Shown: positions 6,022-64,000, counted from the stretch's first letter. The stretch: 64,000 bases of DNA from a virus (IMGVR_UViG_3300031951_000028), one strand, 5' to 3'. A program made the numbers and translations. The notes: a model not told the origin generated them from the sequence alone.

Positions 6022-6036
6022 TATAAAGGCTTCAAA

Positions 6037-6714: not shown

Positions 6715-6716
6715 TA

Positions 6717-8321: not shown

Positions 8322-8322
8322 T

Positions 8323-8511
8323 ATGGTCTTTAAAGAACTAGCAGTTGGTGATTTATTCACAACAAATAATAATCAAGATATAGTTTATAAAAAGATAGAG
8401 CCACAAAAAAGAAACCCAAGAGGGTGTGGTTGCGATAAGGTAAATGCTGAAAATACGGCCGATAATACAAGGTTGAAATTTTCAGATTTTATGACAGTGC
8501 AAAAGATATAG
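8323..8511 (+). CDS. small hypothetical protein inside the split dnaE locus
   Basis: ATG at 8323 preceded by GGAGA; FKELAVGDLF start and a CGC motif. Confidence 0.65.
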   Translation: MVFKELAVGDLFTTNNNQDIVYKKIEPQKRNPRGCGCDKVNAENTADNTRLKFSDFMTVQKI

Positions 8512-8518
8512 GATAATT

Positions 8519-9202: not shown

Positions 9203-9210
9203 TAAATATT

Positions 9211-10698: not shown

Positions 10699-12302
10699 TG
10701 GAAAAGAGAATATTATTATTAAATGAAGCCTCAATGTTTAATAGCGGGCTTGGTAAATATGGGAAGAATCTTTTATTTAAATTAAAAGAAAGAGGATATA
10801 AAGTCGCAGAGCTGGGTTTCGGCGCAGGTGTCAACCCTCCTAATGACCAAGATATTCCTTGGCGCACCTATTATAATGAGGTGCTAGATTCCGACCCAAG
10901 AAAGCAAGTTTATAATCAAGATCCAGATAATAGATTTGGTAAGTGGAGATTCGAAAAAACTCTACTTGATTTTAAACCACATTATGTTTTATCTATTTTA
11001 GACCCATGGAATACAATGTTTATTCCTAAGTCGCCTATGAGAAAGTATTTTAACTACATTTTTATGCCTACATTTGACTCCTTTCCAGTGAAAGAAGAGT
11101 GGATGTCTAGCATAGCCGATGCTGATAGAGTGCTTACTTATAGTGATTGGGCCGCTAAAAAGTGTCCGATACCTATATTTGGAACACCTAAATACGGCGT
11201 GAATGGATTAGAATTTTTCCCTGTGCAGAATAAGAAAATGCACAAGTCAAGATTTGGAATAAATTCCAATAAAACTATAATTGGAAGCATTATGAAAAAT
11301 CAACCTAGAAAAAAGATAGCTGATTTATTTAGAATGTATAAAATGATTCTAGATAAAAATCCTAATACTATGTTGTATTTACACGCGGAGTGGCCAGGTA
11401 AAAATCCTTGGAATATACCAAAGTTATTACTAGAGTATGAAATACAAAATCATGTATTATTAACATACTACTGTATTTCATGTGAAAAGTTTTATCCATC
11501 AGTATACCAAGGTGATTGCGCTCCATGCCAACATTGCTATAGAAATGCCGCTTATATAAAAAGCTCAGCATATTCTATATCTGACACTAGTTTTAATGAT
11601 ATATATAATCTTTTTGATTTATATGTACAATATTCTAATTCAGAAGGCGCGGGCATGCCAGTCGCGGAAGCTGCTTATTGTGGTTTGCCAACATTTGTTG
11701 TAGACTATACTGCAATGGAAGATTATAAAAATACTATAAGTTCTATTCCTTTACCAATATTAGATGATAGTTGGGATATGCAGATAGATGCTTATAGAGC
11801 TTTAGTTGATAATAAAAAATCTGCGGAAATTATTTTAGATTATATTGATAAAGGTAGCGATGTTCTTCAAGCTTGTGGAGATAGATCTAGAGCACAAGCT
11901 TTAGAAATATATAATTGGGATAGAGTTGCTGATGAATGGGAAAAGGCTATAGAGTCTATACCATTAAATGATAAATGGAATAATAAAATTGATTATATAA
12001 CAACTAAACTAGCAGATAATAGTTCTCCAACTGATATAGCTTTTTTTATAAAGAGAATTATGAAAATTAATGACCCAGTATCTTTATTAGGAATTCATGA
12101 GTCAGTTATTAATAAAGAAGTTGTTAATAAATATATGGTTAAAAATGATCCACAAAGAGTTGTTAAAGATTTAAATAATTGGATCGATTATTATAACAAA
12201 TGTGAAAATATAAGAACTGGGCTAGAAACTCAAATTGAAGAAGATTTTATAGAATATGCGCACGTAAAGGAAAAAGTCCATGAAGATAACAATATCTCTT
12301 GA
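10698..12302 (+). CDS. GT4-like (GT-B) glycosyltransferase with zinc-ribbon insertion
   Basis: NQPRKK and YSNSEGAGMPVAEAAYCG (ExFGxxxxEA-type) motifs; CISC..CAPCQHC insert. Confidence 0.85.
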   Translation: MEKRILLLNEASMFNSGLGKYGKNLLFKLKERGYKVAELGFGAGVNPPNDQDIPWRTYYNEVLDSDPRKQVYNQDPDNRFGKWRFEKTLLDFKPHYVLSILDPWNTMFIPKSPMRKYFNYIFMPTFDSFPVKEEWMSSIADADRVLTYSDWAAKKCPIPIFGTPKYGVNGLEFFPVQNKKMHKSRFGINSNKTIIGSIMKNQPRKKIADLFRMYKMILDKNPNTMLYLHAEWPGKNPWNIPKLLLEYEIQNHVLLTYYCISCEKFYPSVYQGDCAPCQHCYRNAAYIKSSAYSISDTSFNDIYNLFDLYVQYSNSEGAGMPVAEAAYCGLPTFVVDYTAMEDYKNTISSIPLPILDDSWDMQIDAYRALVDNKKSAEIILDYIDKGSDVLQACGDRSRAQALEIYNWDRVADEWEKAIESIPLNDKWNNKIDYITTKLADNSSPTDIAFFIKRIMKINDPVSLLGIHESVINKEVVNKYMVKNDPQRVVKDLNNWIDYYNKCENIRTGLETQIEEDFIEYAHVKEKVHEDNNIS

Positions 12303-12684
12303 AAATGATTATAAGGGTGATCCTACTGAAATTTTTGAAAAGATAAAAAGGAAAGCGAAAAAAATTACAGAAGTTTATTTATTAGGTTTTAGCCAAAGTG
12401 ATAAGCAAATAGAGCGTTTTGCAAAAACAAAAAAGATAAATGTTACTACTAAACTCCCTAATTGGGACGATGTAGATATTAAGGGTGCTTCTGTCAAAAC
12501 TAAAGTTGATAAAGATGGAAAAGAAAAACAATACAACGCTAGAGCAGGCTTCCAGCGCAACGAGGAAGTTATTGCTAATACAGATATCCTCGTATGGCAA
12601 GGTGCTCCGAAAGATTATAGAGCAGATATATTGGAAAAAGCGCGGTTAGCTAATATAGAGATTATTTATTTAGATGAGGTGTAA
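12280..12684 (+). CDS. SLOG/YspA-like (DUF2493-like) protein
   Basis: PNWD...AGFQRNEEVIANTDILV motif. Confidence 0.6.
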   Translation: MKITISLENDYKGDPTEIFEKIKRKAKKITEVYLLGFSQSDKQIERFAKTKKINVTTKLPNWDDVDIKGASVKTKVDKDGKEKQYNARAGFQRNEEVIANTDILVWQGAPKDYRADILEKARLANIEIIYLDEV

Positions 12685-12685
12685 G

Positions 12686-13309
12686 ATGCAAGAAGAAGTA
12701 ATGGTTGTAAGTAGAGAAATATTTGATGATGCTGGCGCTTTTCAAGGCTTCTCGTCAGACCTAGAAAAAATAGGTCAGATTTTAGATTCTAAGAATATTT
12801 CTTTTATGCCTAGAGATGAAATGGAAAAAGACCCTTCTTATAAACAAATAATTCCTTATTGCGTGTTTGGAGTTTTTAAAGAAGGGATCCCATACTTATT
12901 CTCTTATACTAGAGGCTCAAAAGGTGGAGAAAATAGGCTACATGCTAAAAAGAGTATAGGTGTAGGAGGTCATATTAATCCTATTGATTCTAACCATATA
13001 GGAGATAAGCCATCTGATATTTATGTTAATGGAATGATGCGCGAGCTTCAAGAAGAGGTTGGTTTATACTCAGGTTTTGCGCGCAAGACTATTGGGTTAG
13101 TAAATGATGATGAGGATGACGTCGGAAAAGTCCATTTGGGCGTAGTAGAGATGTTTGAGTTGGAAAACCTATTTTTAGCCATAAAAGACGAAGCGCTAGA
13201 AAGTGGTAATTTTATCCCATTAGAAGAAATTTTACAGGATAAAGATAGTTATGAAAATTGGTCAAAACTGGTTTTGGAGTATATAGATGGCTACATTAAT
13301 AATAAGTGA
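12686..13309 (+). CDS. NUDIX-family phosphoesterase
   Basis: EKDPSYKQIIPY, RLH..SIGVGGHIN, Nudix box RELQEEVG, VGKVHLG; GAGGT upstream of ATG 12686. Confidence 0.85.
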   Translation: MQEEVMVVSREIFDDAGAFQGFSSDLEKIGQILDSKNISFMPRDEMEKDPSYKQIIPYCVFGVFKEGIPYLFSYTRGSKGGENRLHAKKSIGVGGHINPIDSNHIGDKPSDIYVNGMMRELQEEVGLYSGFARKTIGLVNDDEDDVGKVHLGVVEMFELENLFLAIKDEALESGNFIPLEEILQDKDSYENWSKLVLEYIDGYINNK

Positions 13310-14039
13310 GCAAGACAGTAGCCTTAATGCGTTAATAGAGGCCCTTAGCGCTTCATTAGACGCGACTTCGTGTACGATTTATACTGGAAGACCAGTAGAT
13401 AAGAATTATGTCGGCACAAGCCAAATATACGAAAATTATGACTCTACCATCCAAATCTTACCTCCAGAGGAAATGTATCAATTTCCTGGCAAAAAGAATA
13501 TAGCTCTGGTAAAGTCAAAGCTCGCAAATGACGATAAGCACTTTCTTAAAAAGTTTGACTTGGTATTACCAATAGAAAGACCTTTAGATTCGGCCATTTA
13601 TACAAAAACTGAGCAGTTATTCAATCACAAAAATGAACGTCTAAGATTATATTATGAGGAAGATGATAATGCTTATGAAGTATTAAAAGCTTATTATTCT
13701 GAATTTGTTAGGGATGAAAGTGTAATATTGTATTATATTGGTGATAATTATGATGATCATGGTAAGTATGTAAAGAAAATCTTAGATAAAGATAATTATC
13801 CACATACTATGGTATTTAATAATGCTTTGTATCATAATAAAGTATCAATCTTGCAAAATGCAAATGCTACGCTTACTGAAAACGAGGAAGCTATTTTTTA
13901 TAGCAAGCCATATATTTGGTATAATCAAATGCGCAATGCATGGCTTTCATTAAAAGATTTTGAAAATAATAGAGAGTTTGTTAAAAACCCAGATTGTAAT
14001 GAAATGATTAAGAGGATTAAATGCGCATTAGAAACGTAG
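13287..14039 (+). CDS. hypothetical protein, possibly degenerate GT-B fold
   Basis: Coupled ORF; LKAYYSEF..DESV and EAIFYSKP faintly resemble GT4 C-terminal half. Confidence 0.45.
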   Translation: MATLIISEQDSSLNALIEALSASLDATSCTIYTGRPVDKNYVGTSQIYENYDSTIQILPPEEMYQFPGKKNIALVKSKLANDDKHFLKKFDLVLPIERPLDSAIYTKTEQLFNHKNERLRLYYEEDDNAYEVLKAYYSEFVRDESVILYYIGDNYDDHGKYVKKILDKDNYPHTMVFNNALYHNKVSILQNANATLTENEEAIFYSKPYIWYNQMRNAWLSLKDFENNREFVKNPDCNEMIKRIKCALET

Positions 14040-14488
14040 CAAATAAGTTTCTCTATCCTCATAGGATGCCAGCAGTTATAGTTGATATCCATGAAGATAA
14101 TGAGTTAATGAAAACTTTTCTAGAAGTAGCTAAAAAGAGAGATTTTTTTATATATTCTTTAGAAGAAAGCAAGATTTTAAAAAAATATAACCCCGAAACT
14201 CCGTATGATGGGTGTATAATTAATAATAGGTACAGGTACAGGAACGCAAATAAGATATCTGAATTTCTTAATATACCAATCTTTCTTCTCCAAAAAGACG
14301 AGCTGCCCGATAAAAAGGAACATGGGTATTTAATGAATAAGCAGCAGCATTTTGATGCTTCTTTCTTTTTATCTGAAAAGACCGCAAAGTCTTGGTATAG
14401 CGTTCCGACTGAAATTGTAAATTTTTACGATTCTGATGAACTTAATAGGATTATAGACATTGTCAAACAACAAAAATATAGTAGGTGA
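14021..14488 (+). CDS. hypothetical protein
   Basis: Coupled ORF in operon. Confidence 0.55.
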   Translation: MRIRNVANKFLYPHRMPAVIVDIHEDNELMKTFLEVAKKRDFFIYSLEESKILKKYNPETPYDGCIINNRYRYRNANKISEFLNIPIFLLQKDELPDKKEHGYLMNKQQHFDASFFLSEKTAKSWYSVPTEIVNFYDSDELNRIIDIVKQQKYSR

Positions 14489-15194
14489 AAAATTCACTTC
14501 TTGTAAAGATTGTAAATTTGCTACTTGGGATGGAAACACTCAAGTCGGTTGTGAACAAGGGGTAATGGATAAGTATAAAAATATTATTGCTGCCTATGAT
14601 GAAGAAAAAGAATTTAATATTATTAATAATGATGTATGCTTATTAAAACGCGCGACTAATTCAAAATGCTCGTTAGAACAAGCCAGAAAAGAAATAAGTA
14701 TAAGATATAATTCTATTATTTTATACAAAGAAAAAACTACTAAGAAACAGTTAGAAAAAACTATAAAAGCTTTACAAGCACAGTCAATACAACCATCTTT
14801 AATATGTATTATTATACCTTTTGGTCTTGAAGTAGATATAGAAAATATCGCTACTTTATTTAAAAAATTAGAAATTAAAAATTGGAAAGTTGAATATCAA
14901 TTAAATGAAGATTCGACAGAAAATTATATTGATCGATTTATAGAAACTACAACTGAAAAGCAGCCTTGGTATTTATTAATCAACTCAGACTATCTTTTAC
15001 CAAAAGATTATTTAGAACAGATTAATAAAAGATATACTCTAGAATTAGAACAATTTGGTTTAATAAAACCAGTAGATGAAGAGCGTAATGGATTGTTAGT
15101 AAAGACTATTTTCCATGCTTATCTTGGCGGCTCTAGACAAAAATTAATTGAAAATAAATTTAACAATACGTTTGCATATTATGAAAAAAAGTGA
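14460..15194 (+). CDS. hypothetical protein: N-terminal CxxC plus degenerate GT2-like domain
   Basis: CKDC..C motif; LEKTIKALQAQ and WYLLINSDYLL resemble GT-A elements. Confidence 0.5.
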   Translation: MSNNKNIVGEKFTSCKDCKFATWDGNTQVGCEQGVMDKYKNIIAAYDEEKEFNIINNDVCLLKRATNSKCSLEQARKEISIRYNSIILYKEKTTKKQLEKTIKALQAQSIQPSLICIIIPFGLEVDIENIATLFKKLEIKNWKVEYQLNEDSTENYIDRFIETTTEKQPWYLLINSDYLLPKDYLEQINKRYTLELEQFGLIKPVDEERNGLLVKTIFHAYLGGSRQKLIENKFNNTFAYYEKK

Positions 15195-15837
15195 TGTTAT
15201 AATTTTGGCGGCTTCGCCATCAAGTTATAATATATACACTCCTCTTATGAAAGTTAAGAGGAAAACATTGATTCACAACTTAGTTAAAAAAATAAGTAAC
15301 AATCCAAATGTAAATAAGATAATAGTGGTTGGCGGTCATAATTTTGAGGAATTAAAAAGAGCTTTGTCAGACGTAGATGTACATTTTGTATATAATAAAA
15401 ATTATAGCAATGGTATTTGTTCATCTATTAAAGCTGGAGTCGCGAGTGTCGAGTCAGATTCATTAATGGTTATGCATGGAGATTTGTGGTTCAAAAATTT
15501 ACAAATTAGTAAGATTTTAAAGAATCAAAAATCCTTAATTGTAGCAACTGAATGTAGACATATGAAAGCGAAGGAAATAGGAATTAGAGATTATAATGGG
15601 CAGCTACTTTATTTTGGTTGGCGCCAAAAATTAAAATGGGGAAAAATTTTCTATATTCACCAAGATTTTCGTCAAATTTTTGAGAATGTTTTGTATAATA
15701 ATAGTACAGGGAATTGGTTCTCGTTTGAAATTTTGGGCTATATGTTAAAAGCGGGCTGTAGCTTTGAAATTTTAAACCATAAGAATAGCTTGTTTGATAT
15801 AGACTGCTATCAAGACTTAAGGAAGATAATTTTATGA
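15181..15837 (+). CDS. nucleotidyltransferase (MobA/LicC-like)
   Basis: VIILAA, IIVVGG, NKNYSNGICSSIKAG, VMHGD, DID; canonical GxGxR loop is altered. Confidence 0.75.
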   Translation: MKKSDVIILAASPSSYNIYTPLMKVKRKTLIHNLVKKISNNPNVNKIIVVGGHNFEELKRALSDVDVHFVYNKNYSNGICSSIKAGVASVESDSLMVMHGDLWFKNLQISKILKNQKSLIVATECRHMKAKEIGIRDYNGQLLYFGWRQKLKWGKIFYIHQDFRQIFENVLYNNSTGNWFSFEILGYMLKAGCSFEILNHKNSLFDIDCYQDLRKIIL

Positions 15838-16067
15838 AATATTTTGGTTGTTATGAAGTTAACCCCGATGTGGTAGGTTTTTTATCTACAATTGAAGGCG
15901 ATAAAACTTTATTTTGTTGCTTGAATAATCATCATGGAGTTAATTTGAAAAACGTGGCCATTTTTCCTATGAGAAATGGTTACTACCATGATATAACTTT
16001 TTTAGATAAATTGTCATATGAATTGACAGAAGGTTTTTTAGGTAAAAGACAATGTTTGAAGGTATAA
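15834..16067 (+). CDS. hypothetical protein
   Basis: ATGA overlap with upstream gene. Confidence 0.5.
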   Translation: MKYFGCYEVNPDVVGFLSTIEGDKTLFCCLNNHHGVNLKNVAIFPMRNGYYHDITFLDKLSYELTEGFLGKRQCLKV

Positions 16068-16846
16068 ATTATAATAATATGAACTTGCAAGATCGAGGCA
16101 AGTTAATTAAAAAATACCATATAGATGGCGATTGGTCGATGAATAGATTGGCTACTGCGCTCGGTATTTATGTTAATAAAATTAAAAGAGATGCTGCTAA
16201 GCTTGGATTAAAGACAAATTCTTTATCAGAAGCTCAAAAGAAAGCTCTATCTACAGGAATTTCTAAACATCCGACTGAGGGAACTAAACGTCCTGCTGAA
16301 ACTGTCGCTAAAATGTCTAAAAATATTAGAGAGGCGTTTCTAAAATGGGATGATAAGAAGCGTGCGCAAGATAAGTTAAGAAAATCTGCTAAATTAAAAA
16401 AGCAAAAAAATAAGCCATACTTATCTGCAAAGAAAATTGAAGGTATTCAAAAAGCTGCCAGACAAGGTTCTAAATTAGAGAAGCATATCTTTAGCGAATT
16501 AGCTAAGAAATATAATGTTGAATTCCATAAGGAAGATACTTTAGGACAGACTGAATTCCATATCGACTTATTCTTACCTAAATTTAAAATAGCAATTGAA
16601 GTTGATGGTCCAGCTCATTATAAAAATATTTGGGGCGAAGATAAGTTAGAAAAAAATAAAGAAAAGGATAATAGAAAAACAGGCTATATTTTACAGAAAG
16701 GTTATTACTTAATTCGTTTTATTAATGACAAGAAGTTTTCTATAGCTTATGGTAATAGTGTTGTAGAACTATTGACTAAATATATAGAAAATATCAAGAA
16801 TAAGAATCAAAAAGAGAAGCAAATTATATGCCGCCTAGAAAGATGA
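16052..16846 (+). CDS. free-standing endonuclease: HTH + NUMOD3-like motif + Vsr/DUF559-like nuclease
   Basis: HPTEGTKRPAETVAKMS (NUMOD3-like); SKLE..HIDLFLP..IAIEVDGPAH..KDNRK..GYYLIRF. Confidence 0.8.
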   Translation: MFEGINYNNMNLQDRGKLIKKYHIDGDWSMNRLATALGIYVNKIKRDAAKLGLKTNSLSEAQKKALSTGISKHPTEGTKRPAETVAKMSKNIREAFLKWDDKKRAQDKLRKSAKLKKQKNKPYLSAKKIEGIQKAARQGSKLEKHIFSELAKKYNVEFHKEDTLGQTEFHIDLFLPKFKIAIEVDGPAHYKNIWGEDKLEKNKEKDNRKTGYILQKGYYLIRFINDKKFSIAYGNSVVELLTKYIENIKNKNQKEKQIICRLER

Positions 16847-17526
16847 AACAAGAATTATCTATAGAGCCTATACTGCCAGACGCAAAAATAATTGAGGGCG
16901 AATTAGTTGAACCGCCATCTTACATGGACCCTGAATGGACTGATTATGTTATTAGCCAGTTAGATGAAAGCGAGTTTTGGGAAGGTATTCCTAAACTTGA
17001 TGGTCTTAGACGATTGGTTGAAAAACTTATCAGCCCAATAGTAAGAGTTAATGTAGATATTAAACCAGTGATAGGAAATAGCGTAGCTATCATTGCTACT
17101 GCAACTGTTTTATTAAGAAATGGTGATGAATTTTCTGCTGCGTCAGACGCTACTCCTAGCTCTTCTCCAGAAGGGTTTAGGAATAGATTAACTGCGCTCG
17201 CAGATAGTCGCGCCAAATCAAAAGTTTATAGAGAAATTCTAAGACTTAGAAATATTAGTACAACTGAGGAAGTCAATCAATCTATTGACACAGATGAGCA
17301 TGAGCCTATAGTTGGAAGTCAAACAATATTAATTAACAACTTAATTAAAGATATTTCAAATACTCATAAAAAGAGAATATTTATTGGAAAATTAATTAAA
17401 GAGTTGTTCCCTAGCCAAAATGGAGATATAAATGTATTAAAATACTCTGAGGCAGGAAAGATTATTCAAAAGTTAAGTGATTTTAAAGCAAAAAGACAAG
17501 ATATCCCAGATTCAGTATTGGAGTAA
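16828..17526 (+). CDS. Rad52/Sak-like single-strand annealing protein (putative)
   Basis: DGLRRL, ATATV, ALADSRAKSKVYREILRL..TTEE resembles the AETRAxxRA motif of phage annealing proteins; next to an SSB. Confidence 0.55.
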   Translation: MPPRKMKQELSIEPILPDAKIIEGELVEPPSYMDPEWTDYVISQLDESEFWEGIPKLDGLRRLVEKLISPIVRVNVDIKPVIGNSVAIIATATVLLRNGDEFSAASDATPSSSPEGFRNRLTALADSRAKSKVYREILRLRNISTTEEVNQSIDTDEHEPIVGSQTILINNLIKDISNTHKKRIFIGKLIKELFPSQNGDINVLKYSEAGKIIQKLSDFKAKRQDIPDSVLE

Positions 17527-17529
17527 AGT

Positions 17530-17931
17530 ATGATTAAAGTTAATTGTTCAATTCATTGGTGCCATCACAGCAAGCCAGGTTCTATGAGTAATAAGTATGA
17601 AGTTACTCTTGGTGGCTTATCAGAAAGCGCTGTAGCAGCATTGAAGGAAGTAGGTATTGTAGCATTAGACAAGACAGATAAAGGTATGGGCTGGTGCATT
17701 GCTCCTAAAAGCAATATCCCATTGCCAGTTTTTGACGAAGCTGGCGAATCTTTGGAAGGAGCGATTGTTGGTAATGGCAGCCGTGGCGTTGCTATTGTTA
17801 CCCCATATGAATGGGAATATAAAAATAGGTCAGGAATTTCTCCTAATCTAGCGCGCCTAATTGTTACTGATTTAATTCAGTACTCAACAGCCGCTGACAT
17901 CGCATCTAATCCAGATGTTCCAGCTCTATAA
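17530..17931 (+). CDS. T7 gp2.5-like single-stranded DNA-binding protein
   Basis: KYEVTL, VGNGSRG, YEW..GISPNL..LIVTDLIQY. Confidence 0.7.
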   Translation: MIKVNCSIHWCHHSKPGSMSNKYEVTLGGLSESAVAALKEVGIVALDKTDKGMGWCIAPKSNIPLPVFDEAGESLEGAIVGNGSRGVAIVTPYEWEYKNRSGISPNLARLIVTDLIQYSTAADIASNPDVPAL

Positions 17932-47492: not shown

Positions 47493-48181
47493 AGTTTATT
47501 TACTTTTGTTTTATTGATAATAATATCTAAAACTCTATCTTGAAAAGCGGCGCTTTCTAAAATATTATCAACAAAATTAACTTTGCCAACCGCTGGCATA
47601 GTCCAACTTTTACTTTTAGATGGCCTCATTATTAAACCACCTACGCCAGATCTAGCATTTTTACGTCTTACGCCGTCAACATGCTCCACAGTCCAGTTAC
47701 TAATAGTAATTGAATTTGCCTCTAATAATAGCCATTCCAGCCAATTGATTTCAGTGGCAGTGCCAAATCTTTTGCTGCGCCTATCATTATTAACAGATAT
47801 ATATTTAGACAGGGGTAAATTTAATACATCGCTATAATCTGAGCGTATAGCACCAATATTAATTACCATATCTAAATCTTTACCACTAGGACTTCTATCT
47901 TCTAGTGTTACTTTAATACCTTTTTGCCAAGTGTCTAATATATCATTTAAGCCTTGGTTTACTATATCATTACTTAAGCCTAAATGAGCCCTTAAATCAT
48001 TTTTACCACTAGTGGTTAATGATTGCCAAGTTTCTGTATTTCTAACAAAACTTGTAAATAGCTCGCCTACAGCTACAGTAACTGGATATATTATTTTAGA
48101 CAAAATGCGCCATACTTTTATCTTTACAGCGCGTGTCATCTCTATTTCATTTACATCAAATATTACTCTTGCATTTATCAT
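47489..48181 (-). CDS. putative neck/tail completion protein
   Basis: Position; INWLEWLL and RSG..LIM motifs. Confidence 0.5.
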   Translation of the reverse strand: MINARVIFDVNEIEMTRAVKIKVWRILSKIIYPVTVAVGELFTSFVRNTETWQSLTTSGKNDLRAHLGLSNDIVNQGLNDILDTWQKGIKVTLEDRSPSGKDLDMVINIGAIRSDYSDVLNLPLSKYISVNNDRRSKRFGTATEINWLEWLLLEANSITISNWTVEHVDGVRRKNARSGVGGLIMRPSKSKSWTMPAVGKVNFVDNILESAAFQDRVLDIIINKTKVNKL

Positions 48182-48621
48182 TGCTTAATCCAAATAATAG
48201 AGTAATATTCATAACCGGGTCCAAAACCGCATGGCTCAGGCACGCTATCTCTTCTATAAGATACACCATCTATTTTGATTTTTCCGATTTTTATTAGCTT
48301 TTCTTTATTTTCTAAATTAACTACAGTTCGTACAAAACTTTCATTAATTAAAGCTTGGTTCTTAAAAACATAAGCTTTTTCATTATAGAATACTGCTAAG
48401 TCCAGTGTTTCTTCTACTGTGGTAATATCACAAGCTGTTTGATTAATCTGCCCCGGTATACCATATTTATTAATCCCGGCAGTATTACAATTATTGTATA
48501 CAGGAATTTCATAAATCAATGTAACTGGGCGCACGCACCCGCAAGAACCATCTAAAATAGATGATATCTGTTCAAGCCATTTCTCTTTTAATTTTTTTAT
48601 AGCTCTATCTAGTGGGCGCAT
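48178..48621 (-). CDS. putative head-tail joining protein
   Basis: Position; PEPCGFG motif. Confidence 0.45.
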   Translation of the reverse strand: MRPLDRAIKKLKEKWLEQISSILDGSCGCVRPVTLIYEIPVYNNCNTAGINKYGIPGQINQTACDITTVEETLDLAVFYNEKAYVFKNQALINESFVRTVVNLENKEKLIKIGKIKIDGVSYRRDSVPEPCGFGPGYEYYSIIWIKQ

Positions 48622-49159
48622 TGATCAACTCGTCTCTATAAGCTCTACCTAAATAATAAGTTTTATCATCTATTGTTTGAGCTATTTCTTTAATTACCAT
48701 CATAGTTTCTTCGTTATTAGGAAATTTAATACCTCTTTTGACAGCTGTTTTTAAAGGGCTTAAGGCAGCTTCAGTATCTAACTCTTTTAAAGTTTTCCAT
48801 ACTTTTGGATAACCAGCAAAGATTTCTTCATCACTTTTCCCCACTGCGTCTTCACGTCTTTTCCCCATTGGTAATAAAATACAAATTTCATAAGATGTCG
48901 AAACATATTCATATATGCCACGACTATTTTTACGCCATTCTGGATGATTGCTATTGATAACAAGTAATTCTAATTGGCTTATTCGCTTTTCTTGCTCTTC
49001 TGCCATCTTTTTATACTTGTCTCTTTCCATAGCATCAAATTCACGACGGTCTTTTCTCTCAGAATCTTGTACTTCTTTACGATATTTAAGAAAAGTAATT
49101 AAACCACCACCAAGAATAAAGGTGATGAATGGCATTATATAATCTTGAATATCGCCCAT
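48605..49159 (-). CDS. membrane-anchored PAS-domain protein
   Basis: N-terminal TM, coiled coil, then WRKNSRGIYEYVS..YE..G..REDAVGKSDEEIF (PAS_4-like). Confidence 0.7.
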   Translation of the reverse strand: MGDIQDYIMPFITFILGGGLITFLKYRKEVQDSERKDRREFDAMERDKYKKMAEEQEKRISQLELLVINSNHPEWRKNSRGIYEYVSTSYEICILLPMGKRREDAVGKSDEEIFAGYPKVWKTLKELDTEAALSPLKTAVKRGIKFPNNEETMMVIKEIAQTIDDKTYYLGRAYRDELINAPTR

Positions 49160-49166
49160 ATTAACC

Positions 49167-49967
49167 TCAAGGTATCATAAATATAAATTTAATAGTTGAT
49201 GCTATTTTACTATAAAGCTCTGGGAAAAGTCTCGCAAATACCGCTCTAATTAACGCCAAACCTAACAGTATACCTATAATTACACCAAATATTTTAAGCG
49301 CAATATAGAAGATTCCATTTATAATTTTATGGATCCAATTAGCTAACGCCTCTAATGGGCGCAGTCTTAAATCGACAGAATTAAGCCTTTCTTCTATATT
49401 TTTTTGCCTTGCATCTATCCGTTCAACAATTATGTCTATTAAACGTCTACGCTCTCTTTCTTGATTTATTTGCTCTATTAAATTAGGTAATAAATTTAAT
49501 CTATCATTTATATCTTTTAAAGAAGCAAGTCTATCATCAAAAAGCTGCCTAATTTTATCTAAAACACGTGCTCTCTCAAGCTCATTTTTATTAAATAATT
49601 CATCAACTTTATTAGATACTTCTTCAACTAAATTTCTAATAGGTTGAAAATCTGGCTTAAGCTCTAAATTACTTAATATCTTCTTTAACTCTTCAATTTG
49701 ATTTCTTAAAGGTTGAAAGTTATCTCTTTCAGTTAAACCTTGAAGTCTTTCGTCTATCTCTATAATTCTAGAAGAGATTAAACCTAATAGGGCGCGTTGT
49801 GTTTTAGACTCTTGCCTGATACTTTCTAATATCTTATCAAACAACCCATCTTGAATATTCTCATCTTGAGTAACTACTGGTGACGGAACTGGTAGTGGAG
49901 GAAATTCATCTTGCACTAAAGCTGTAGAAACTAAAATTCCAAATGCTACAAAAAATTCGCTAATCAT
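49167..49967 (-). CDS. exported coiled-coil protein with C-terminal membrane helix
   Basis: Hydrophobic N-terminus, Pro-rich linker, heptad pattern with FQPLRN/FQPIRN repeat, C-terminal TM. Confidence 0.7.
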   Translation of the reverse strand: MISEFFVAFGILVSTALVQDEFPPLPVPSPVVTQDENIQDGLFDKILESIRQESKTQRALLGLISSRIIEIDERLQGLTERDNFQPLRNQIEELKKILSNLELKPDFQPIRNLVEEVSNKVDELFNKNELERARVLDKIRQLFDDRLASLKDINDRLNLLPNLIEQINQERERRRLIDIIVERIDARQKNIEERLNSVDLRLRPLEALANWIHKIINGIFYIALKIFGVIIGILLGLALIRAVFARLFPELYSKIASTIKFIFMIP

Positions 49968-50352
49968 TAAAAAAACCTTCTAAATCAGAATTGTTCCAAA
50001 ACGTTCTGACTCCTTTCCCATTCTTATCTACTTTATATTTAAATAATTTAGGTATAGATTTATCTGTACCTTCTAGTAGTTTTTTCCTTAATGCTTCTTC
50101 TTTATCGTAATCTACTAAGACGACGCTTTTTCCTTTAGGGAATATAGTCTTCTTTAACTGTTCTTTTAATCTTTGGCATGGAGGACACCAATCTGCACTA
50201 ACTAATATATAGTATGTACCTTCTTTAAAACTATTTTTTGAGTATGATTCTTTTATAAAATCATTATAGTTTTTAAAGCCGCCAATTTTCTCTTGAGTAA
50301 AGCCTAGACAAGGCAATAAACAAAATAAAAGAACAGTTAAATACCTTACCAT
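49960..50352 (-). CDS. exported thioredoxin-like protein
   Basis: Signal-peptide-like N-terminus; ADWCPPCQRL; cis-Pro SIP motif. Confidence 0.85.
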   Translation of the reverse strand: MVRYLTVLLFCLLPCLGFTQEKIGGFKNYNDFIKESYSKNSFKEGTYYILVSADWCPPCQRLKEQLKKTIFPKGKSVVLVDYDKEEALRKKLLEGTDKSIPKLFKYKVDKNGKGVRTFWNNSDLEGFFND

Positions 50353-51269
50353 AGATTATTATTAATCTCCTGAGCTGGATAGCCTTTAAAATTAGATAAA
50401 GCGTATGAATCTTGCTGCTTAAGCATTCTATCTGCTGCATCAGCATCTACCCAGAACGAGCCTTCTGGTTGATTATGGCGTTTAGGGCCATCGATCCAAT
50501 TTTCACCCCATGAATTAATACAAAGCAAACCTGGGCGTTTATACTCATCATCAACACTAGAGAATAACATACAATGGGCCCATCTACCTTGTGGTCTAGC
50601 AAAACCTTCTGAATCGCGCTTCATAGTGAAGCCTTGATTTGAGCAAACTACAACTGGATAACCATTAGCGATTGCATCACGCGCCTCTTCATACGAAGTA
50701 ACAAGAGCGGTAGTTTGGATTGGATGCTCATCAGCTGTTGGCTCCAACTCATAAGGTAATTCATTAAAACCCCAAGCCTTAGCTACTTTACCAGAATAGT
50801 TAGTTAAATCATATTTATCATATTTTTTTCTCAATAGAGTTCCGTTGTCTTTAACTGCTTTTTGAGCCCAAGAACCTAAAGAACCATCCATATTCCTTAA
50901 TCTACCTTGACCTTGAATAACTCTACTAGTACCATAAATCCATTCTGTTGCAGTTAATACTCCTGGCCATTTTTCTGATTCTTTACGAAGTAAAATTTCA
51001 ACAGCCATTAATACTTCAATGCCTTTAGCATAACCATGGCTTACACAATCGCCAATAGTTTGAGTATTAATAGGAAAAGTTCCATTCCACAACTTTGTTA
51101 AAGCTTCATGTAATAATACTATTTTCTTCTCGCCTGTGCCACTTAAATTCCAAGCCGTGCTGCCGAAAAGTTTTGAAAAACTTAAAATCTCATCATGAGC
51201 TTTCGCTACACTATAATCTCTTTCTTCAGGAGCAATCCAACCAAATTCTTGACTCATTTCAATAACCAT
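50346..51269 (-). CDS. papain-like (C1) cysteine peptidase
   Basis: QTIGDCVSHG (Gln/Cys), WAHCM (His), INSWGENW (Asn); true start may be ATG 51257. Confidence 0.85.
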   Translation of the reverse strand: MVIEMSQEFGWIAPEERDYSVAKAHDEILSFSKLFGSTAWNLSGTGEKKIVLLHEALTKLWNGTFPINTQTIGDCVSHGYAKGIEVLMAVEILLRKESEKWPGVLTATEWIYGTSRVIQGQGRLRNMDGSLGSWAQKAVKDNGTLLRKKYDKYDLTNYSGKVAKAWGFNELPYELEPTADEHPIQTTALVTSYEEARDAIANGYPVVVCSNQGFTMKRDSEGFARPQGRWAHCMLFSSVDDEYKRPGLLCINSWGENWIDGPKRHNQPEGSFWVDADAADRMLKQQDSYALSNFKGYPAQEINNNLW

Positions 51270-51792
51270 CTCTTTCTTCAGACATTCTCTTTACTTTTAT
51301 TCCAAACTTATCTAATATACTTTCTAATTTCGCCCATGCATTAAAATAATCTAATATAGGATTTAATATATTACTTAATACACAATAACATTTATTATAT
51401 GGAGGTTTGTGATGCTTAGCGTGTTGATATTTTGTTTGTACTATAGCTGCTTCTTGTAAATAAGTAATAAAAATATTGTTTTGACTTCTATGATTCCAAG
51501 CATGAACTTCGTTGCCCATAGAAGTAAAAAAACCAATTAATACCACCCAATATAAATCGATACCTAAAATTAATAAGAAAGGAGCTAAACAAACAGTTAA
51601 AAGAATAGGGACTAAATTCCTTGTTAGAAAAGTACCCATTCTACCCATTAAGCCAGGTTGTTTGTGATGTTCAATATTATGAACGCCTATACCAAACGGC
51701 CAATCTTTTGTAGCATAGGCATCTTCAATCCAATGAAAGAGCCCAGTAAAAAAATCAGCTATTAAAAAACACGCTAAGATTTCACCAATCAT
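51259..51792 (-). CDS. CarF/TMEM189 (PEDS1)/FAD4-family lipid desaturase
   Basis: ADFFTGLFHWIEDAY, HNIEHH, NEVHAWNH, HAKHH, YCVLSNILNPILD with hydrophobic segments. Confidence 0.85.
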   Translation of the reverse strand: MIGEILACFLIADFFTGLFHWIEDAYATKDWPFGIGVHNIEHHKQPGLMGRMGTFLTRNLVPILLTVCLAPFLLILGIDLYWVVLIGFFTSMGNEVHAWNHRSQNNIFITYLQEAAIVQTKYQHAKHHKPPYNKCYCVLSNILNPILDYFNAWAKLESILDKFGIKVKRMSEERDGY

Positions 51793-52520
51793 TTAATTGC
51801 TTTTAAACCTTTCGCCACTTCCAAATAGGCTGCTATATATTCGTCCTTGTCTGGAGAAACTGTTTTCATTAAATCAACATATTTAGCATTAAAATTTGAC
51901 CATTTATTTCTAACTTCATCAGTCAATCTATCTTTTAATAAAGAAGATAATTCTGTGGCCATTTGTTGTGGAGACATATTTAAACCAGCGGCTCTAGAAG
52001 CAATAGTTTCAAAACATGTAGCTAACACTTTTGCTTCCGGGCCTTTATTATCTGATCTTACTTCTGTCGCAGCTTTATATATTTCTAAAGCCAGCCCGTC
52101 TAAATCTGGAGGATTTGGGTTTGGGTTAGGGTTAGGATTTGGGTCAGGTTCTGGACCAGGAGGCGTTGGATTAACAGTATCTCCAAGTATTTCTATATAA
52201 GAAAAAGTTTTATCAAGTTTTTCCCCATAGCTAGTAATTAATATCTTATACAAACCGGGGCGGCTTGTAAAAACATATTTACCATCTTGTAATGGGAGAC
52301 ATTCTACAGTTTCAGATTCTAAAACTTCAACATCGCGGCCAGATACTTTAATTTTATATACTCTATGTATACTGATATCTACAACTTTAGATGCTTCTAC
52401 TGGCTTATAATCAAAAACTATTAATTTATAGGCTTCGCTTTTTTCAGGCGAATCTATTTGAGCAAACACTAATGAACAACTTAAGAAAACAAATAATAAA
52501 CTTAATAATACCTTTTTCAT
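51789..52520 (-). CDS. exported protein with Pro-Asn repeat linker
   Basis: Signal peptide (..VFA|Q); PTPPGPEPDPNPNPNPNPNPP linker between two domains. Confidence 0.75.
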   Translation of the reverse strand: MKKVLLSLLFVFLSCSLVFAQIDSPEKSEAYKLIVFDYKPVEASKVVDISIHRVYKIKVSGRDVEVLESETVECLPLQDGKYVFTSRPGLYKILITSYGEKLDKTFSYIEILGDTVNPTPPGPEPDPNPNPNPNPNPPDLDGLALEIYKAATEVRSDNKGPEAKVLATCFETIASRAAGLNMSPQQMATELSSLLKDRLTDEVRNKWSNFNAKYVDLMKTVSPDKDEYIAAYLEVAKGLKAIK

Positions 52521-52521
52521 C

Positions 52522-53268
52522 TTATAACCCTGTCAATTCTTTAATAATCTTTAAACTTGGACCATTTGTAGGAGCGCCAATTAAAGCTCCATTTACTCTT
52601 TCATGCCTATTACTATAAGTCACAGTAGCAACTACGCTTATAATTTCACCTTTATCATTCAATATTGGACCGCCGCTATCACCTTGCATAGCAAAACCTA
52701 ATACGCAAGTACCTTTATCATCGCATATAGCTATTTTAGAACTAAAATGTCTAACTTTATCAGACCCGCCGCCAAAACCTAAAATCTGACAATCTCCATA
52801 TAAATTTGGCAAATCTTTAGCTATCTTTAAAGGTTGTATATCATCAGGTATACATGCCTTAACTAATGCTGCGTCATTTTTATGTCCTGAAACTTCATAC
52901 ATCTCATCATATAATTTGATCTTAACAGCATTCTCGCTTTTCTTACCATTATAAAAATTGATATCCATTAAATCGCAATCTGCTACATGGGCAGCAGTTA
53001 ATATTCGACCGTAATACCAGCCTTTTGGACAACCTTCTTGATTTTCTTCTTTAAAAATAACTGATCCAGAACCTAAACCTATAAAATCGCCTTTTGGATT
53101 AGCTTCTGTTTTTTTTCTACAAGTAATCTTTACAACTGATTTTTTAATTTCAGATTCTTCTATAAAACGCCATATTTCAGGCCTGTCGATACCTACTTGA
53201 GAAAAAAGAGAGGGTGTGTTAAAAAGAAAATAAACAGAAATGAAAATAGAAAATAATAATTTCTTCAT
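52522..53268 (-). CDS. exported trypsin-like (S1) serine protease
   Basis: Signal-like N-terminus; LTAAHV, DAAL, GDSGGP triad motifs. Confidence 0.92.
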   Translation of the reverse strand: MKKLLFSIFISVYFLFNTPSLFSQVGIDRPEIWRFIEESEIKKSVVKITCRKKTEANPKGDFIGLGSGSVIFKEENQEGCPKGWYYGRILTAAHVADCDLMDINFYNGKKSENAVKIKLYDEMYEVSGHKNDAALVKACIPDDIQPLKIAKDLPNLYGDCQILGFGGGSDKVRHFSSKIAICDDKGTCVLGFAMQGDSGGPILNDKGEIISVVATVTYSNRHERVNGALIGAPTNGPSLKIIKELTGL

Positions 53269-53319: not shown

Positions 53320-53829
53320 CTATTCTACAGGTCTTATAACAAATTTAACAGTCCTATCAGCGGTTTGATTTGAACTCGTGACGAGTTTTATAAACGAAGC
53401 TCCGCTAAAAACTTCAGGATCTACTGGAACATAACATCCTGTAGAAATAGTAATCGAATAATTCGAAGCGCCGCCTACGCTTTTTATTGTATTAAATGTG
53501 CCACTTGATTCATCTGAGCTGGTAAAAGTGCCAGAATTAGATGAAAAAGTGTTTGGAAAATACAAACCTACTAACTGAGATTTGTCATCTTTCCAAAAGC
53601 CACAGTCAATAACTGAACTTGTATTAGAGCCGCTATCAATAGAGCCTTCTACTATTTGATAGCTAGATAAATCAAACTCGGCGCGACTTGTCCCATCCAC
53701 ATCAAATTCAAAATTTGATTGTTTCACGCCATTTAAACTTGTTATATAATATATATCATTAACATCAGCATCTGGCTTTAATGTATAGATATACTTTTTA
53801 TTTGGATCGCTAGGTTGTAATACGGCCAT
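53320..53829 (-). CDS. hypothetical protein, possibly structural
   Basis: GAGG RBS; Ser/Gly-rich; preceded by promoter motif. Confidence 0.6.
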   Translation of the reverse strand: MAVLQPSDPNKKYIYTLKPDADVNDIYYITSLNGVKQSNFEFDVDGTSRAEFDLSSYQIVEGSIDSGSNTSSVIDCGFWKDDKSQLVGLYFPNTFSSNSGTFTSSDESSGTFNTIKSVGGASNYSITISTGCYVPVDPEVFSGASFIKLVTSSNQTADRTVKFVIRPVE

Positions 53830-53872: not shown

Positions 53873-55489
53873 GTTATTTACTATAGTAGATAAGTAATTC
53901 TTAATATCGCCATTTGGCATATGATATACATCAAATATTTCTGGTTTATCCTTATAAATACCCGCAAAAATAGCCTCTTCTGTACCTATATATCCCATAC
54001 TTAAAGCTTTATCTAAAAAGTCATAAAAATAAGTATTTAATTCATTGATTGCATCTAACCCCCCTCCAAAAATACTAGCTCTTAATACTTTTAATGGAGT
54101 CGACTTGCAAAGTTTTTTGTACCCATCTTTTGAAAATCCATGAATTTCTGTGTATATGGGATAAGGATAAGATGCTATAAATAAATTATCTGTTTGTATT
54201 TTATTAAAGTCTACATCTTTTATAAAATTTATATTATAACTATTACATATACCAGAATCTATCCAAAAATATCTTTTTCCTTGAAAACAATACTTACTAT
54301 TATATACCGCATATTTTAAAAATTCTATTTTATGCAAGGTTAAAGATATATAGTCTGGATTAGTTATAACGCTATCATACATCCAACTAGATTGAGTTTT
54401 CCATTCTTTTGTATTTGTTATCTCAACAATCTTATTATGATAATACATTCTTCTTATATCATTTAAAGACCTAAAATGTACTATTGCTTTTTTTCCGCCA
54501 GTCATTGCGCTTATTTTTTCATAATATTTTTCATCAGCAAAAATAACAAGCGGAACGTTTGCCTCTAATAATTTCTGTAAACCATTTATATAATGATCTT
54601 CAAAACTTCTATTGTCTATTTTATCTCTATTAATATCTATTAAAGCAGTAACTAAAACATTTTCATATTCTGTATGATCTTTATCAGTGTTTCTAACTTG
54701 TAAAGCTAATTCATCATATTTATAATAATCTACCCAAGGTAAAGTTCTATTATTAGATAACTCTTTTGGAAAAAGTGTTTCTGGCGTAGTAATTTCATTT
54801 GGCCTTTTATTAACCATTATACTTTCATTATCGCCAGTATGTATCACACATTTTTTATTTAAATAAACACCTTTAAAACCAAGCCCAAAAAACTTCCTAT
54901 CTATATTCCATTCATTATAATATTTTTCTACACGCCCTAATAATATTAAATCTTCTCTTCTTTTAAGATTAGGACTCCCTTGCCAAATAAACCAATGAAA
55001 ATGATTTTTAGTTATACGCCAAGGCTTCTTATAATAAAAACTATTATCTATTAATTGATCTTCATAAGAATCAATACATTCTTCTTGAAAAGTTCTCCAA
55101 GAAATATCTATAGATCCTATATCTCTATATTTTTCTAAAATATCTTTTGATAGAGATAAATATCCTGTATCTATAAAATGCCAATCTTCTTCTAGATAAA
55201 AAATGTATTTGGTAGAGCAAAAAGATGTCATAAAATCTTGTGCCCACCAAAGACCGCGATTTTCTGGAAAGCAAATTATATCTGCTATTTCCCCGTATTT
55301 TTCGACTAATTTTTCAAAAACACCATCTATAGCGCTATCATCTACTATAACTATTTTTGTTATAATATCTCTAGTCCTAAGAAAAGACTCCATCGTTTTT
55401 TCTAACAAATGGAGTCTATTGCAACTTAAGACATATGTAGTGATTTCACTCTCTGGTTGATCAATAGTATGTATTTTAATTTTAGACAC
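53864..55489 (-). CDS. GT2-like + HtrL/WlaTC-like double glycosyltransferase
   Basis: N: LSCNR, IVDDS, YLEEDW; C: LVTALIDINR, YFWIDSG, IFGG, GTEE. Confidence 0.75.
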   Translation of the reverse strand: MSKIKIHTIDQPESEITTYVLSCNRLHLLEKTMESFLRTRDIITKIVIVDDSAIDGVFEKLVEKYGEIADIICFPENRGLWWAQDFMTSFCSTKYIFYLEEDWHFIDTGYLSLSKDILEKYRDIGSIDISWRTFQEECIDSYEDQLIDNSFYYKKPWRITKNHFHWFIWQGSPNLKRREDLILLGRVEKYYNEWNIDRKFFGLGFKGVYLNKKCVIHTGDNESIMVNKRPNEITTPETLFPKELSNNRTLPWVDYYKYDELALQVRNTDKDHTEYENVLVTALIDINRDKIDNRSFEDHYINGLQKLLEANVPLVIFADEKYYEKISAMTGGKKAIVHFRSLNDIRRMYYHNKIVEITNTKEWKTQSSWMYDSVITNPDYISLTLHKIEFLKYAVYNSKYCFQGKRYFWIDSGICNSYNINFIKDVDFNKIQTDNLFIASYPYPIYTEIHGFSKDGYKKLCKSTPLKVLRASIFGGGLDAINELNTYFYDFLDKALSMGYIGTEEAIFAGIYKDKPEIFDVYHMPNGDIKNYLSTIVNNGV

Positions 55490-57107
55490 GTTTTAACACC
55501 ATTAAATTATTAACAAACCAACCCATATAATATCCTTGAGTAACATGATTAATAATAGAATTTTCTATATCATAATCTCTCTCAAAACCTTCTTTTTTAA
55601 ATTTCTCTTGCCAGTATTCTTTAGGTTGACAATTAATATGGCCTGTTCCACCTTGCCCAGGTTTTGCGGCAGTCCATATGACTACACCACCACTAGCAAC
55701 ATTTTTACAAACTGTTTTAACAACATTATCAGATAATTTTTCATGTATATGTTCAGCAACTTCTAAGCACATAACAATATTTCCAAGATCATTAACTGAA
55801 AATAGATCTGCGTGTATTAAATTTGGCTTTCCTTTTACTTTAGGATCTATATCATAACCTATTGCGTTAAAATCTTGATCTCTTAAAGCGTTAACATAAG
55901 TCCCTAAACCACAACCTAGATCAATAATTTTAGCATCTGGAATTGCGTGTTGTTTTATCCAAACAGCTAAATTTTCTGCAAAAGGTTTTTCTTCTTTATC
56001 TATTTGTTCTAAATCACAGTTTTCACTAATCTGATACCACCCATTTCCAGTGTAAACATTCATTATATCGTTAAAATATTTTTCATATTTTGGCGCTATG
56101 TTTTCTAAAGAAAATTTCTCCCCTTGTTTTCTGCAGTCGGCAGGATTAATTTTATCTATATTAAGTGCGGCATTTACAAAATCTTCAAATGTTCTACATC
56201 TATAGCCAGTAACTCCTTCTATATTATTCTCGCTGAAGGCTCCCCAGTCTGTTGTAATAGTTGGGGTTCCGCATAATAAATTCTCTATTTGGACTCCGCC
56301 AAATGGCTCTACATACATACTAGGTAAAAAACTACCTTTAGCATTTTTCATTAATTCTTTTCTTTTATTTATATCTGCATAACCAACATATTCACAATGA
56401 GGTGGTAAATAATAACCCTCTTCTTTTTGTCCAGCTATAATAAGTTTTGCGCCTATTTTTTCTGTAACTTGAATAGCTATATTTACGCCTTTACCATCAT
56501 AAACTCTTCCTAAATAAAGAAAATAATCTTGTTTTTTATCTGAATACTCAAATTCGTCTAAATCAAAATAATTAGGAATAACTACATCATACCAACTCTG
56601 TCTGCATTCTCCAACATTTTTAAGGCCGCAATAAGCATGATAGATCGCATAAGACTCAAAAACTTTCCAGTTGGCCCAATGGCCTGCTGCATAACCTATC
56701 CCAGGTTCTACACAAATTAAGTCCGAATGAGCATCGCATATTGGCTTAACACCTTGACCCCAAAAAGGTAAAATAAAATCTAGTGGTTGTTTTCTTTTTT
56801 CTATTTCTAAAATAGCGTTTTTATAGAAAGTTTGATAAGCATGATCCATGGTATCAAATTTAAAGAAATTTTTCCGCCAATCATAACTTCCATAAGCTAT
56901 TTCTAAATCTTTGTTAGTAGTTACAGTTACATGCTCATCACAAATCAGATTAGATTCCTCATGGCCATAATGTATTATATGATGACCACGGGCCTTCATC
57001 ATTTTACCAAATTTTAAAACCTTCTGAGTGTATGCACAAGCGGAATATTCTGGATTTGTAACTGTGTGTGGCAAACCCAATATGTGAAAACGAAATTTTT
57101 TACTCAT
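55482..57107 (-). CDS. GT4 glycosyltransferase fused to SAM methyltransferase
   Basis: YLGR..KG, EPFGGVQIE, TDWGAF; IDLGCGLG, CLEVAEH, GQGGTGHIN. Confidence 0.88.
   Translation of the reverse strand: MSKKFRFHILGLPHTVTNPEYSACAYTQKVLKFGKMMKARGHHIIHYGHEESNLICDEHVTVTTNKDLEIAYGSYDWRKNFFKFDTMDHAYQTFYKNAILEIEKRKQPLDFILPFWGQGVKPICDAHSDLICVEPGIGYAAGHWANWKVFESYAIYHAYCGLKNVGECRQSWYDVVIPNYFDLDEFEYSDKKQDYFLYLGRVYDGKGVNIAIQVTEKIGAKLIIAGQKEEGYYLPPHCEYVGYADINKRKELMKNAKGSFLPSMYVEPFGGVQIENLLCGTPTITTDWGAFSENNIEGVTGYRCRTFEDFVNAALNIDKINPADCRKQGEKFSLENIAPKYEKYFNDIMNVYTGNGWYQISENCDLEQIDKEEKPFAENLAVWIKQHAIPDAKIIDLGCGLGTYVNALRDQDFNAIGYDIDPKVKGKPNLIHADLFSVNDLGNIVMCLEVAEHIHEKLSDNVVKTVCKNVASGGVVIWTAAKPGQGGTGHINCQPKEYWQEKFKKEGFERDYDIENSIINHVTQGYYMGWFVNNLMVLKRV

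Positions 57108-60551: not shown

Positions 60552-64000
<3,449 letters not shown>

Follow-up and report, generated by a model that had tools for sequence, protein, structure and literature searches.

Textbook phage lysis requires a holin and a peptidoglycan hydrolase, together with a spanin in diderm hosts, and the corresponding genes are arranged in cassettes such as S-R-Rz/Rz1 of lambda and t/e of T4. Two groups of described enzymes also resemble the locus reported here: the papain-family (C1) peptidases, among them xylellain (PDB 3OIS), Legionella Lpg2622 (6A0N) and cathepsins B/S, and the papain-like Cys-His hydrolases of phage lysins (CHAP, NlpC/P60 and the peptidase domains of mycobacteriophage Lysin A). 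The locus is a block of seven co-oriented open reading frames (ORFs) that occupies positions 48605-53268, on the minus strand, of a 64,000-nt stretch (the window) from the virus IMGVR_UViG_3300031951_000028. This window forms the right-hand half of a linear IMG/VR record of 128,386 bp that is estimated to be 86% complete and is called G000 below. The block is interpreted here, with somewhat more confidence than doubt, as a protease-based envelope-opening (lysis) module whose core would do the job of a muralytic endolysin. Since the block recurs in other phages and the carriers examined were found without endolysin families, it probably represents an undescribed route of envelope opening. Its genes and one neighbour are as follows (positions in the window; lengths in amino acids, aa).

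52522-53268, minus strand: trypsin-like serine protease, 248 aa (PF00089, PF13365, motif positions)
51789-52520, minus strand: putatively exported partner ("Pro-Asn protein"), 243 aa (AlphaFold2 model, helical-domain hidden Markov model)
51259-51792, minus strand: membrane lipid desaturase of the CarF/TMEM189/FAD4 family, 177 aa (PF10520)
50346-51269, minus strand: signal-less papain-fold (C1-like) cysteine peptidase, 307 aa (AlphaFold2 model, Foldseek, homologue alignment)
49960-50352, minus strand: putatively exported thioredoxin-like protein, 130 aa (WCPPC, Pfam matches below cut-off, phrog_22)
49167-49967, minus strand: coiled-coil protein with a C-terminal membrane segment, 266 aa, called cc266 (sequence reading)
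48605-49159, minus strand: transmembrane (TM)-PAS protein, 184 aa (ESM Atlas features and structure)
53320-53829, minus strand: beta-rich neighbour protein, 169 aa, called g169 (recurrent near the cassette)

The seven genes are tightly coupled. From the trypsin gene to the TM-PAS gene, the first junction is a gap of 1 nt, the next four are overlaps (4, 11, 7 and 8 nt) and the last is a gap of 7 nt; the TM-PAS gene overlaps the next gene (48178-48621) by 17 nt, and no terminator-like site was found on the minus strand within the block. The ORFs agree with the seven coupled genes described in a first-pass annotation of the sequence, and its domain assignments (trypsin, desaturase, papain-like protease, WCPPC thioredoxin, coiled coil with C-terminal TM segment, TM-PAS) hold. 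Signal-like N-termini and compartments were judged by eye from the sequence. Four such N-termini had been listed; those of the trypsin, the Pro-Asn protein and the thioredoxin stand, and the hydrophobic N-terminal segment of cc266, with V at -1, is possibly an anchor that stays uncleaved. In the minus-strand late region, a collagen-like fibre gene is followed by glycosyltransferase and sulfotransferase genes, the seven-gene block and four genes without annotation, after which come the tape-measure gene (phrog_28, 1.2e-19) and genes for the distal tail.

Like the holin-endolysin-spanin cassettes, the block consists of tightly coupled late genes in which the gene for a signal-less hydrolase is flanked by genes for small membrane or periplasmic proteins; it shares with them a pre-terminase position in prophage relatives and carriers with no other recognisable lysin. 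Unlike them, its hydrolase has a papain (C1) fold and is not a muramidase, a transglycosylase, an amidase or a member of a known peptidoglycan endopeptidase family. The thioredoxin and the helical-domain partner, both predicted to be exported, and the trypsin-like protease present in several lineages have no classical counterparts, and G000 has no recognised holin or spanin family.

The cysteine peptidase gave no sequence match in Pfam, NCBIfam or PDB, the Peptidase_C1 model included. Its AlphaFold2 model (pLDDT 93.6, 35 homologues) showed a two-lobe papain fold, and Foldseek searches with this model returned xylellain (3ois, 3.6e-10), Lpg2622 and cathepsins B/S, with E values from 3.6e-10 to 1e-6. 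Among the 35 homologues, Q70, C75 and H232 were invariant and N252 was nearly so; these residues follow the Gln/Cys/His/Asn order of the papain family and lie in the motifs QTIGDC, WAHCM and NSWG. On the strength of the model, the protein belongs to a divergent clade that is recognised by fold alone, and its peptidase activity is predicted from sequence and model. It shares with xylellain, Lpg2622 and cathepsins B/S the fold (TM score ∼0.5-0.7) and the Q-x4-C, H, N-S-W-G order, but differs from papain-family enzymes in its low identity to them (∼14-16%), in having no signal peptide or classical propeptide, and in being phage-encoded with fixed gene partners and, in some members, an intein-invaded nucleophile. 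With CHAP, NlpC/P60 and the Lysin A peptidase domains it has in common a papain-like superfold Cys-His hydrolase, here proposed to serve phage exit; however, the CHAP and NlpC/P60 models match nowhere in G000, the peptidase aligns to full-size two-lobe C1 enzymes, and peptidoglycan is only a putative substrate. Structural neighbours of the peptidase in BFVD were phage "Peptidase C1" proteins, some of which are named muramidase or peptidoglycan-binding.

The peptidase family is large and carries no Pfam label. At least 768 homologues of 50-68% identity were found, and the peptidase was present on 350 IMG/VR contigs. A further 68 loci lie in species genomes, mostly of Planctomycetota, with a few in Bacteroidota, Novosphingobium and others; genomes of cultivated strains that carry the family are those of Planctomicrobium sp. 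SH661, Bremerella cremea, Tundrisphaera, Aquisphaera, Paludisphaera and Mucilaginibacter. Deposited phages (50,697 records), searched at the DNA and the protein level, contained nothing that matched the peptidase, and a single-protein scan of viral contigs was negative as well.

Three relatives of the peptidase (L080:6834-8774, L081:6765-8738 and P0102) contain an intein precisely before the catalytic Cys. The intein, which has a LAGLIDADG-type block, splits QTIGD from this residue (..GD|CFVAGT...SVHN|CVSHG..), so that the nucleophile of the protease doubles as the +1 splicing residue. Intein insertion sites are typically indispensable, highly conserved positions. The copy of the peptidase in G000 has no intein.

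When the neighbourhoods of the peptidase were compared, only part of the block appeared as a unit: the conserved core, as judged by gene order and predicted signals, is the exported partner, the signal-less C1 peptidase and the exported thioredoxin. Among non-redundant viral loci with both flanks, the partner and the thioredoxin were both present in 19, the thioredoxin only in 10, the partner only in 6, and neither in 18. The cassette that had been proposed stands in part: partner, C1 peptidase and thioredoxin recur together in many loci, and the trypsin and a similar coiled-coil/TM protein in three further lineages, but not the desaturase and TM-PAS genes. The three lineages (L081, L082/83 and L133; ∼54% GC) have the gene order trypsin, partner, peptidase, thioredoxin and a protein with a signal, a coiled coil and a C-terminal TM segment, followed by small TM proteins and a relative of g169, with identities of 27-66%. 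A Pfam tally of 147 neighbours of the peptidase consisted mostly of host-type families, with no recurrent lysin or holin among the 25 families listed of 40. No paper describing a partner-peptidase-thioredoxin module was found in the literature. Two ORFs located two genes upstream of the trypsin gene (L081:4309-4803 and L083:5720-6151) have a basic N-terminus and Cys motifs, and may resemble NinG-type proteins of lambdoid phages.

The partner had been treated as a minor component under the name Pro-Asn protein; its C-terminal helical domain turned out to be the most faithful companion of the peptidase. The AlphaFold2 model (pLDDT 86) shows a signal peptide, an immunoglobulin (Ig)/PKD-like beta-sandwich (∼21-112), a Pro/Asn linker and a six-helix C-terminal domain (residues 142-240) terminating in GLKAIK. 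With a hidden Markov model (HMM) of the helical domain, the gene next to the peptidase on its upstream side was matched in 59 of the 73 loci from genomes and metagenomes, and a match was also obtained in 32 of 80 viral loci. Three types of anchor were seen: a signal peptide with PKD domain and linker; two or three TM segments with PKD domain and linker; and one TM segment with the helical domain only. The beta-sandwich matched Ig-like folds (Z 8-10); a chagasin-type inhibitor was considered for it and rejected, as only generic Ig/filamin/PKD folds were matched. For the helical domain, fold searches gave no match and an ESM Atlas look-up gave no usable one. In L026, L028, L053 and L062 the partner is fused to extensions with 2-3 TM segments; these matched no Pfam family and were not accepted as holins, and an apparent partner-peptidase fusion in L020 looks like read-through or a frameshift.

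The thioredoxin-like protein has a signal-like N-terminus and WCPPC at residues 55-59 (C56 and C59). Its Pfam scores lie just under the cut-offs (Thioredoxin, 20.5 bits vs 23.5; Glutaredoxin, 22.3 vs 22.9), and it matched phrog_22, "thioredoxin domain", at 9.9e-5. With an iterated thioredoxin HMM, relatives were detected directly downstream of the peptidase in 54 loci, often overlapping the peptidase gene, and most of these relatives have a hydrophobic N-terminus and WCxxC.

The trypsin-like protein belongs to PF00089 (33.1 bits, cut-off 20.6) and also matched PF13365. Its catalytic triad, H94/D132/S198, lies in TAAHV, NDAAL and GDSGGP, and its signal-like N-terminus ends in ..LFS|Q. A trypsin gene upstream of the partner was found in L002, L003 and L080 (68-69% identity) and in L081, L082/83 and L133 (27-33%). 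In L008, a single 326-aa ORF (4121-5101), 414 nt downstream of the peptidase, gave matches to two profiles, those of trypsin (1.6e-10) and thioredoxin (3.1e-9), and is an apparent protease-thioredoxin fusion by its sequence.

The position of the unit in prophages bears on its function. Three prophages (L047, L061 and L037) were read gene by gene, and relatives occur in further loci labelled Isosphaeraceae and in other Planctomycetota loci. In the prophages, the partner and then the peptidase are followed by two TM/coiled-coil proteins (weak Rz-like matches in PHROG), a protein with 2-3 TM segments, a small ORF and TerL; the module is upstream of terS/terL and outside the structural operon. TerL was scored on L072 (phrog_2, 5.6e-12) and the portal protein on L033 (phrog_145, 8.5e-30), in the same downstream cluster. 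The place directly before the terminase is the classical one for a lysis cassette, and in this respect the lysis idea of the first-pass annotation gained support. In L006, a Phage_holin_10 gene is located two genes downstream of the peptidase. Small TM ORFs were also enriched near the peptidase: they made up 228 of 873 ORFs (26%) within 2 kb and 79 of 922 (8.6%) further away, an odds ratio of 3.8 with p 2e-23 on crude ORF calls.

Canonical endolysins were searched for in all six frames of G000, and no match to Amidase_2, Phage_lysozyme, SLT, M23, M15_4, NlpC/P60, CHAP or GH25 was obtained. Neither the peptidase nor any other part of G000 contains a recognised muralytic or peptidoglycan-peptidase domain by Pfam, and Pfam scans of 146 G000 ORFs showed no endolysin family among the matches listed (one list giving 25 of 32 families). 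The earlier statement that the window has no endolysin or holin can accordingly be extended, at the level of Pfam, to the whole 128-kb record, and the canonical lysis genes that were to be looked for across the genome are missing for all eight endolysin families in the 86% represented by G000. The survey also took in another 26 carrier records, of which 8 have a completeness of 90% or more: Amidase_2, Phage_lysozyme, SLT, M23, GH25, NlpC/P60, GH108 and Amidase_3 were found in 0 of 26, and M15_4 gave one match, below cut-off. As a positive control, a cyanophage was searched in the same way and gave matches to lysozyme and to M23; the control for GH108 remained silent.

The case for a lytic role is thus built on tight gene coupling, the invariant Q/C/H residues in a C1 fold, fixed partners, the prophage position and the enrichment of small TM ORFs, as well as on the absence of endolysins, the inteins at the catalytic Cys and the muramidase and peptidoglycan-binding neighbours in BFVD. 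From this we infer the lytic role itself, the compartments, the substrates and the following order of events. The signal-less C1 peptidase would build up in the cytoplasm, with the partner, the WCPPC thioredoxin-like protein and the trypsin-like protease exported in advance. Membrane proteins encoded in the cassette or elsewhere would then permeabilise the inner membrane, and the peptidase would enter the periplasm. The thioredoxin may keep the catalytic thiol of the peptidase reduced, may reduce disulfide-linked envelope proteins, or both; the partner would position or regulate the peptidase, and both proteases would cleave the protein or peptide links that give the envelope its cohesion. For the coiled-coil/TM protein, a helper role at the membrane, similar to that of a holin or a spanin, may be envisaged, and the desaturase and the TM-PAS protein may be accessories of this phage family, the former for lipid remodelling and the latter possibly for sensing or timing.

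Several observations weigh against this interpretation. The peptidase occurs with neither partner nor thioredoxin in 28 loci (18 viral and 10 genome), and host-type genes, for instance those for kinases and sigma factors, adjoin it in some of the genome loci. Cleavage of peptidoglycan stems is not known for papain-family enzymes. In G000 itself the block lies within the tail/glycosylation late region, with no terminase gene after it. Neither G000 nor the 26 carrier records yielded a recognisable holin family, and Phage_holin_10 in particular was absent from all 26. The absence of endolysins is established with Pfam models, by which a novel muralytic fold would be missed. Moreover, terminase, portal and capsid families were not seen among the Pfam matches listed for G000, which together with its 86% completeness indicates that the record probably does not cover the whole genome; the uncovered part could contain a canonical lysin.

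The alternative that survives best, although it is unlikely, is that the genes are envelope-remodelling accessories, used for superinfection block, receptor trimming or membrane adaptation, and that lysis is carried out by other, unrecognised genes. Such a role agrees with the clearly lineage-specific addition of the desaturase and TM-PAS genes, with the large glycosyltransferase/sulfotransferase gene set that the block adjoins, with the three or four members that would, by their sequences, be exported well before lysis is needed, and with the genome loci found among host-type genes. It does not agree with a core peptidase that has no export signal, is kept at 40-68% identity across unrelated phage types and carries inteins at its active site, nor with the lysis position before the terminase in prophages and the carriers examined, which have no canonical endolysin family.

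Virion maturation, which had been offered earlier as the alternative to lysis, is improbable. The proteases and the thioredoxin would then process or fold Cys-rich or glycosylated tail and fibre proteins, as might be expected from a block located between fibre/glycosylation and tail genes on the same late strand, and from g169, a beta-rich, structural-looking protein that travels with the cassette. However, tailed-phage virions are assembled in the cytoplasm, and the trypsin, the partner and the thioredoxin carry apparent export signals, by which they would leave that compartment. In prophages the module is also outside the structural operon, upstream of terS/terL, and no known prohead-protease family was matched. 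Very improbable, finally, are entry enzymes that are carried by the virion or co-released to breach a proteinaceous surface layer at infection: the late-strand position beside tail genes in G000 and an Ig/PKD-like domain of the partner resembling domains common on phage surfaces would suit them, but the cassette proteins have no fused tail or baseplate domains, virion cargo would have no use for signal peptides, and exit rather than entry is suggested by the pre-terminase prophage position and by the small membrane proteins enriched near the peptidase.

If the block is a lysis module, as favoured here, a broader proposal can be made, to be regarded as tentative and open to more doubt than belief: a class of phages without muralytic endolysins, including many phages of Planctomycetota and low-GC lineages, would exit by redox-assisted proteolysis. 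Its parts would be a released C1 peptidase and an exported thioredoxin, docking partner and serine protease, with the thioredoxin reducing envelope disulfides or activating the peptidase; in the family of G000, the system would be coupled to lipid desaturation and a PAS-type sensor. If true, there would be a second chemical route out of the bacterial cell, in which the muralytic enzyme is replaced by a protease of papain type together with a dedicated partner and a thiol reductant in the periplasm. Such a route would account for the way in which phages handle protein-rich, disulfide-linked envelopes like those reported for Planctomycetia, and it would supply an annotation marker for "endolysin-less" phages, present on 350 IMG/VR contigs and in 0 of 50,697 deposited phage records. 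Two separate curiosities are the CarF-type desaturase carried by a phage and the intein on a protease nucleophile.

Members of the class Planctomycetia have Cys-rich YTV wall proteins (PMC12673574), and the concentration of the peptidase family in Planctomycetota fits this, in line with the protein-wall link drawn earlier; these bacteria do possess peptidoglycan (PMC4432640). A planctomycete host for the present phage, in contrast, is not supported: the GC content of G000 is 31-34%, vs 55-72% in the planctomycete loci, and the TM-PAS protein has a relative in a crAss-like phage. The signal peptides of G000 expose Gln at +1, which corresponds to the Q-rule of Bacteroidetes (PMC5837995). A host assignment on this basis was dropped, as the AQIEGPE of the partner is also kept in planctomycete prophages and only about three other signals are available in the genome.

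The first-pass annotation had included the desaturase, and the TM-PAS protein as a timer, in the module; both genes proved to be confined to this phage family. Desaturase, cc266 and TM-PAS recur together only there (L002/3, L080 and L162), at 64-92% identity. The desaturase sits between the partner and the peptidase as a lineage-specific insert, seen in loci L002/3, L080, L162 and L007 only. It matched PF10520 over nearly its full length (110.4 bits, cut-off 26.4) and, like CarF/TMEM189 (PEDS1)/FAD4 (PMC9131029), keeps the histidine clusters (positions 20, 38/42/43, 97/101 and 124/127/128). Unlike CarF, it is a phage-encoded family add-on of 177 aa, against 269 model positions, and it scored 50.9 bits with the NCBIfam CarF equivalog NF045946, far under the cut-off of 500. 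Only 9 homologues of near length were found in a set of 5.8 billion proteins, and the desaturase is rare in phages: among deposited phages it was seen only in Erythrobacter phage vB_EliS-L02 (34% identity), in which the gene lies between PhoH and portal, and in one 595-kb uncultured phage.

The proposal that the coiled-coil protein acts as a spanin was not supported. cc266 contains no cysteine and hence no lipobox, matched only weak coiled-coil families, and gave no spanin match in PHROG or Pfam; its coiled coil and C-terminal membrane segment (∼213-245) are a topological likeness to spanins only. L081, L083 and L133 each have a protein of like build in the equivalent place; these three are related among themselves (8e-24), and homology of cc266 to them was not significant (E 0.013-0.16).

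The TM-PAS protein has an N-terminal TM segment (∼9-24), a charged helix and a PAS-like domain, and its charges suggest an N-out orientation. Pfam gave no PAS match at E 0.1 and weak PspB matches. Its ten best neighbours in the ESM Atlas were all PAS clusters, the nearest being viral PAS proteins (score 0.94), and the structural matches were PAS domains of sensor kinases (TM score 0.57-0.66). The family is sizeable and viral, with an ESM Atlas cluster of 1142 members and 53 representative relatives. As a module member beyond this phage family the protein was rejected, none being found beside the peptidase outside it. The nearest relative outside the family (L163:6001-6564, 45% identical) is on a crAss-like contig without the peptidase, amid tail, ring and muzzle genes. 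The neighbour g169 gave no match in Pfam, PHROG or NCBIfam, and in L081, L083, L133 and L151 relatives of it occur at a distance of 2-4 kb from the peptidase.

Some further features of the record were observed. A segment of ∼8.5 kb outside the window (G000:C1:10000-18600) has 25-29% GC and almost no ORF of at least 80 aa, and the contig ends (first and last 2 kb) have ∼55% GC and are collagen-repeat-like. Window positions 63087-64000 are off the contig, and the start of this part also matches a repeat inside the contig at C1:128161. Among the plus-strand replication genes at 24-17931 of the window (DNA pol III alpha, Thy1 and others), Pfam matches to Intein_splicing and LAGLIDADG_3 were obtained, and there is probably a second intein in G000 among these genes. 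At 55482-57107 of the window, the first 362 aa of a glycosyltransferase-methyltransferase fusion share ∼75% identity with a glycosyltransferase of Synechococcus phage ACG-2014f, which suggests gene exchange among marine phages.

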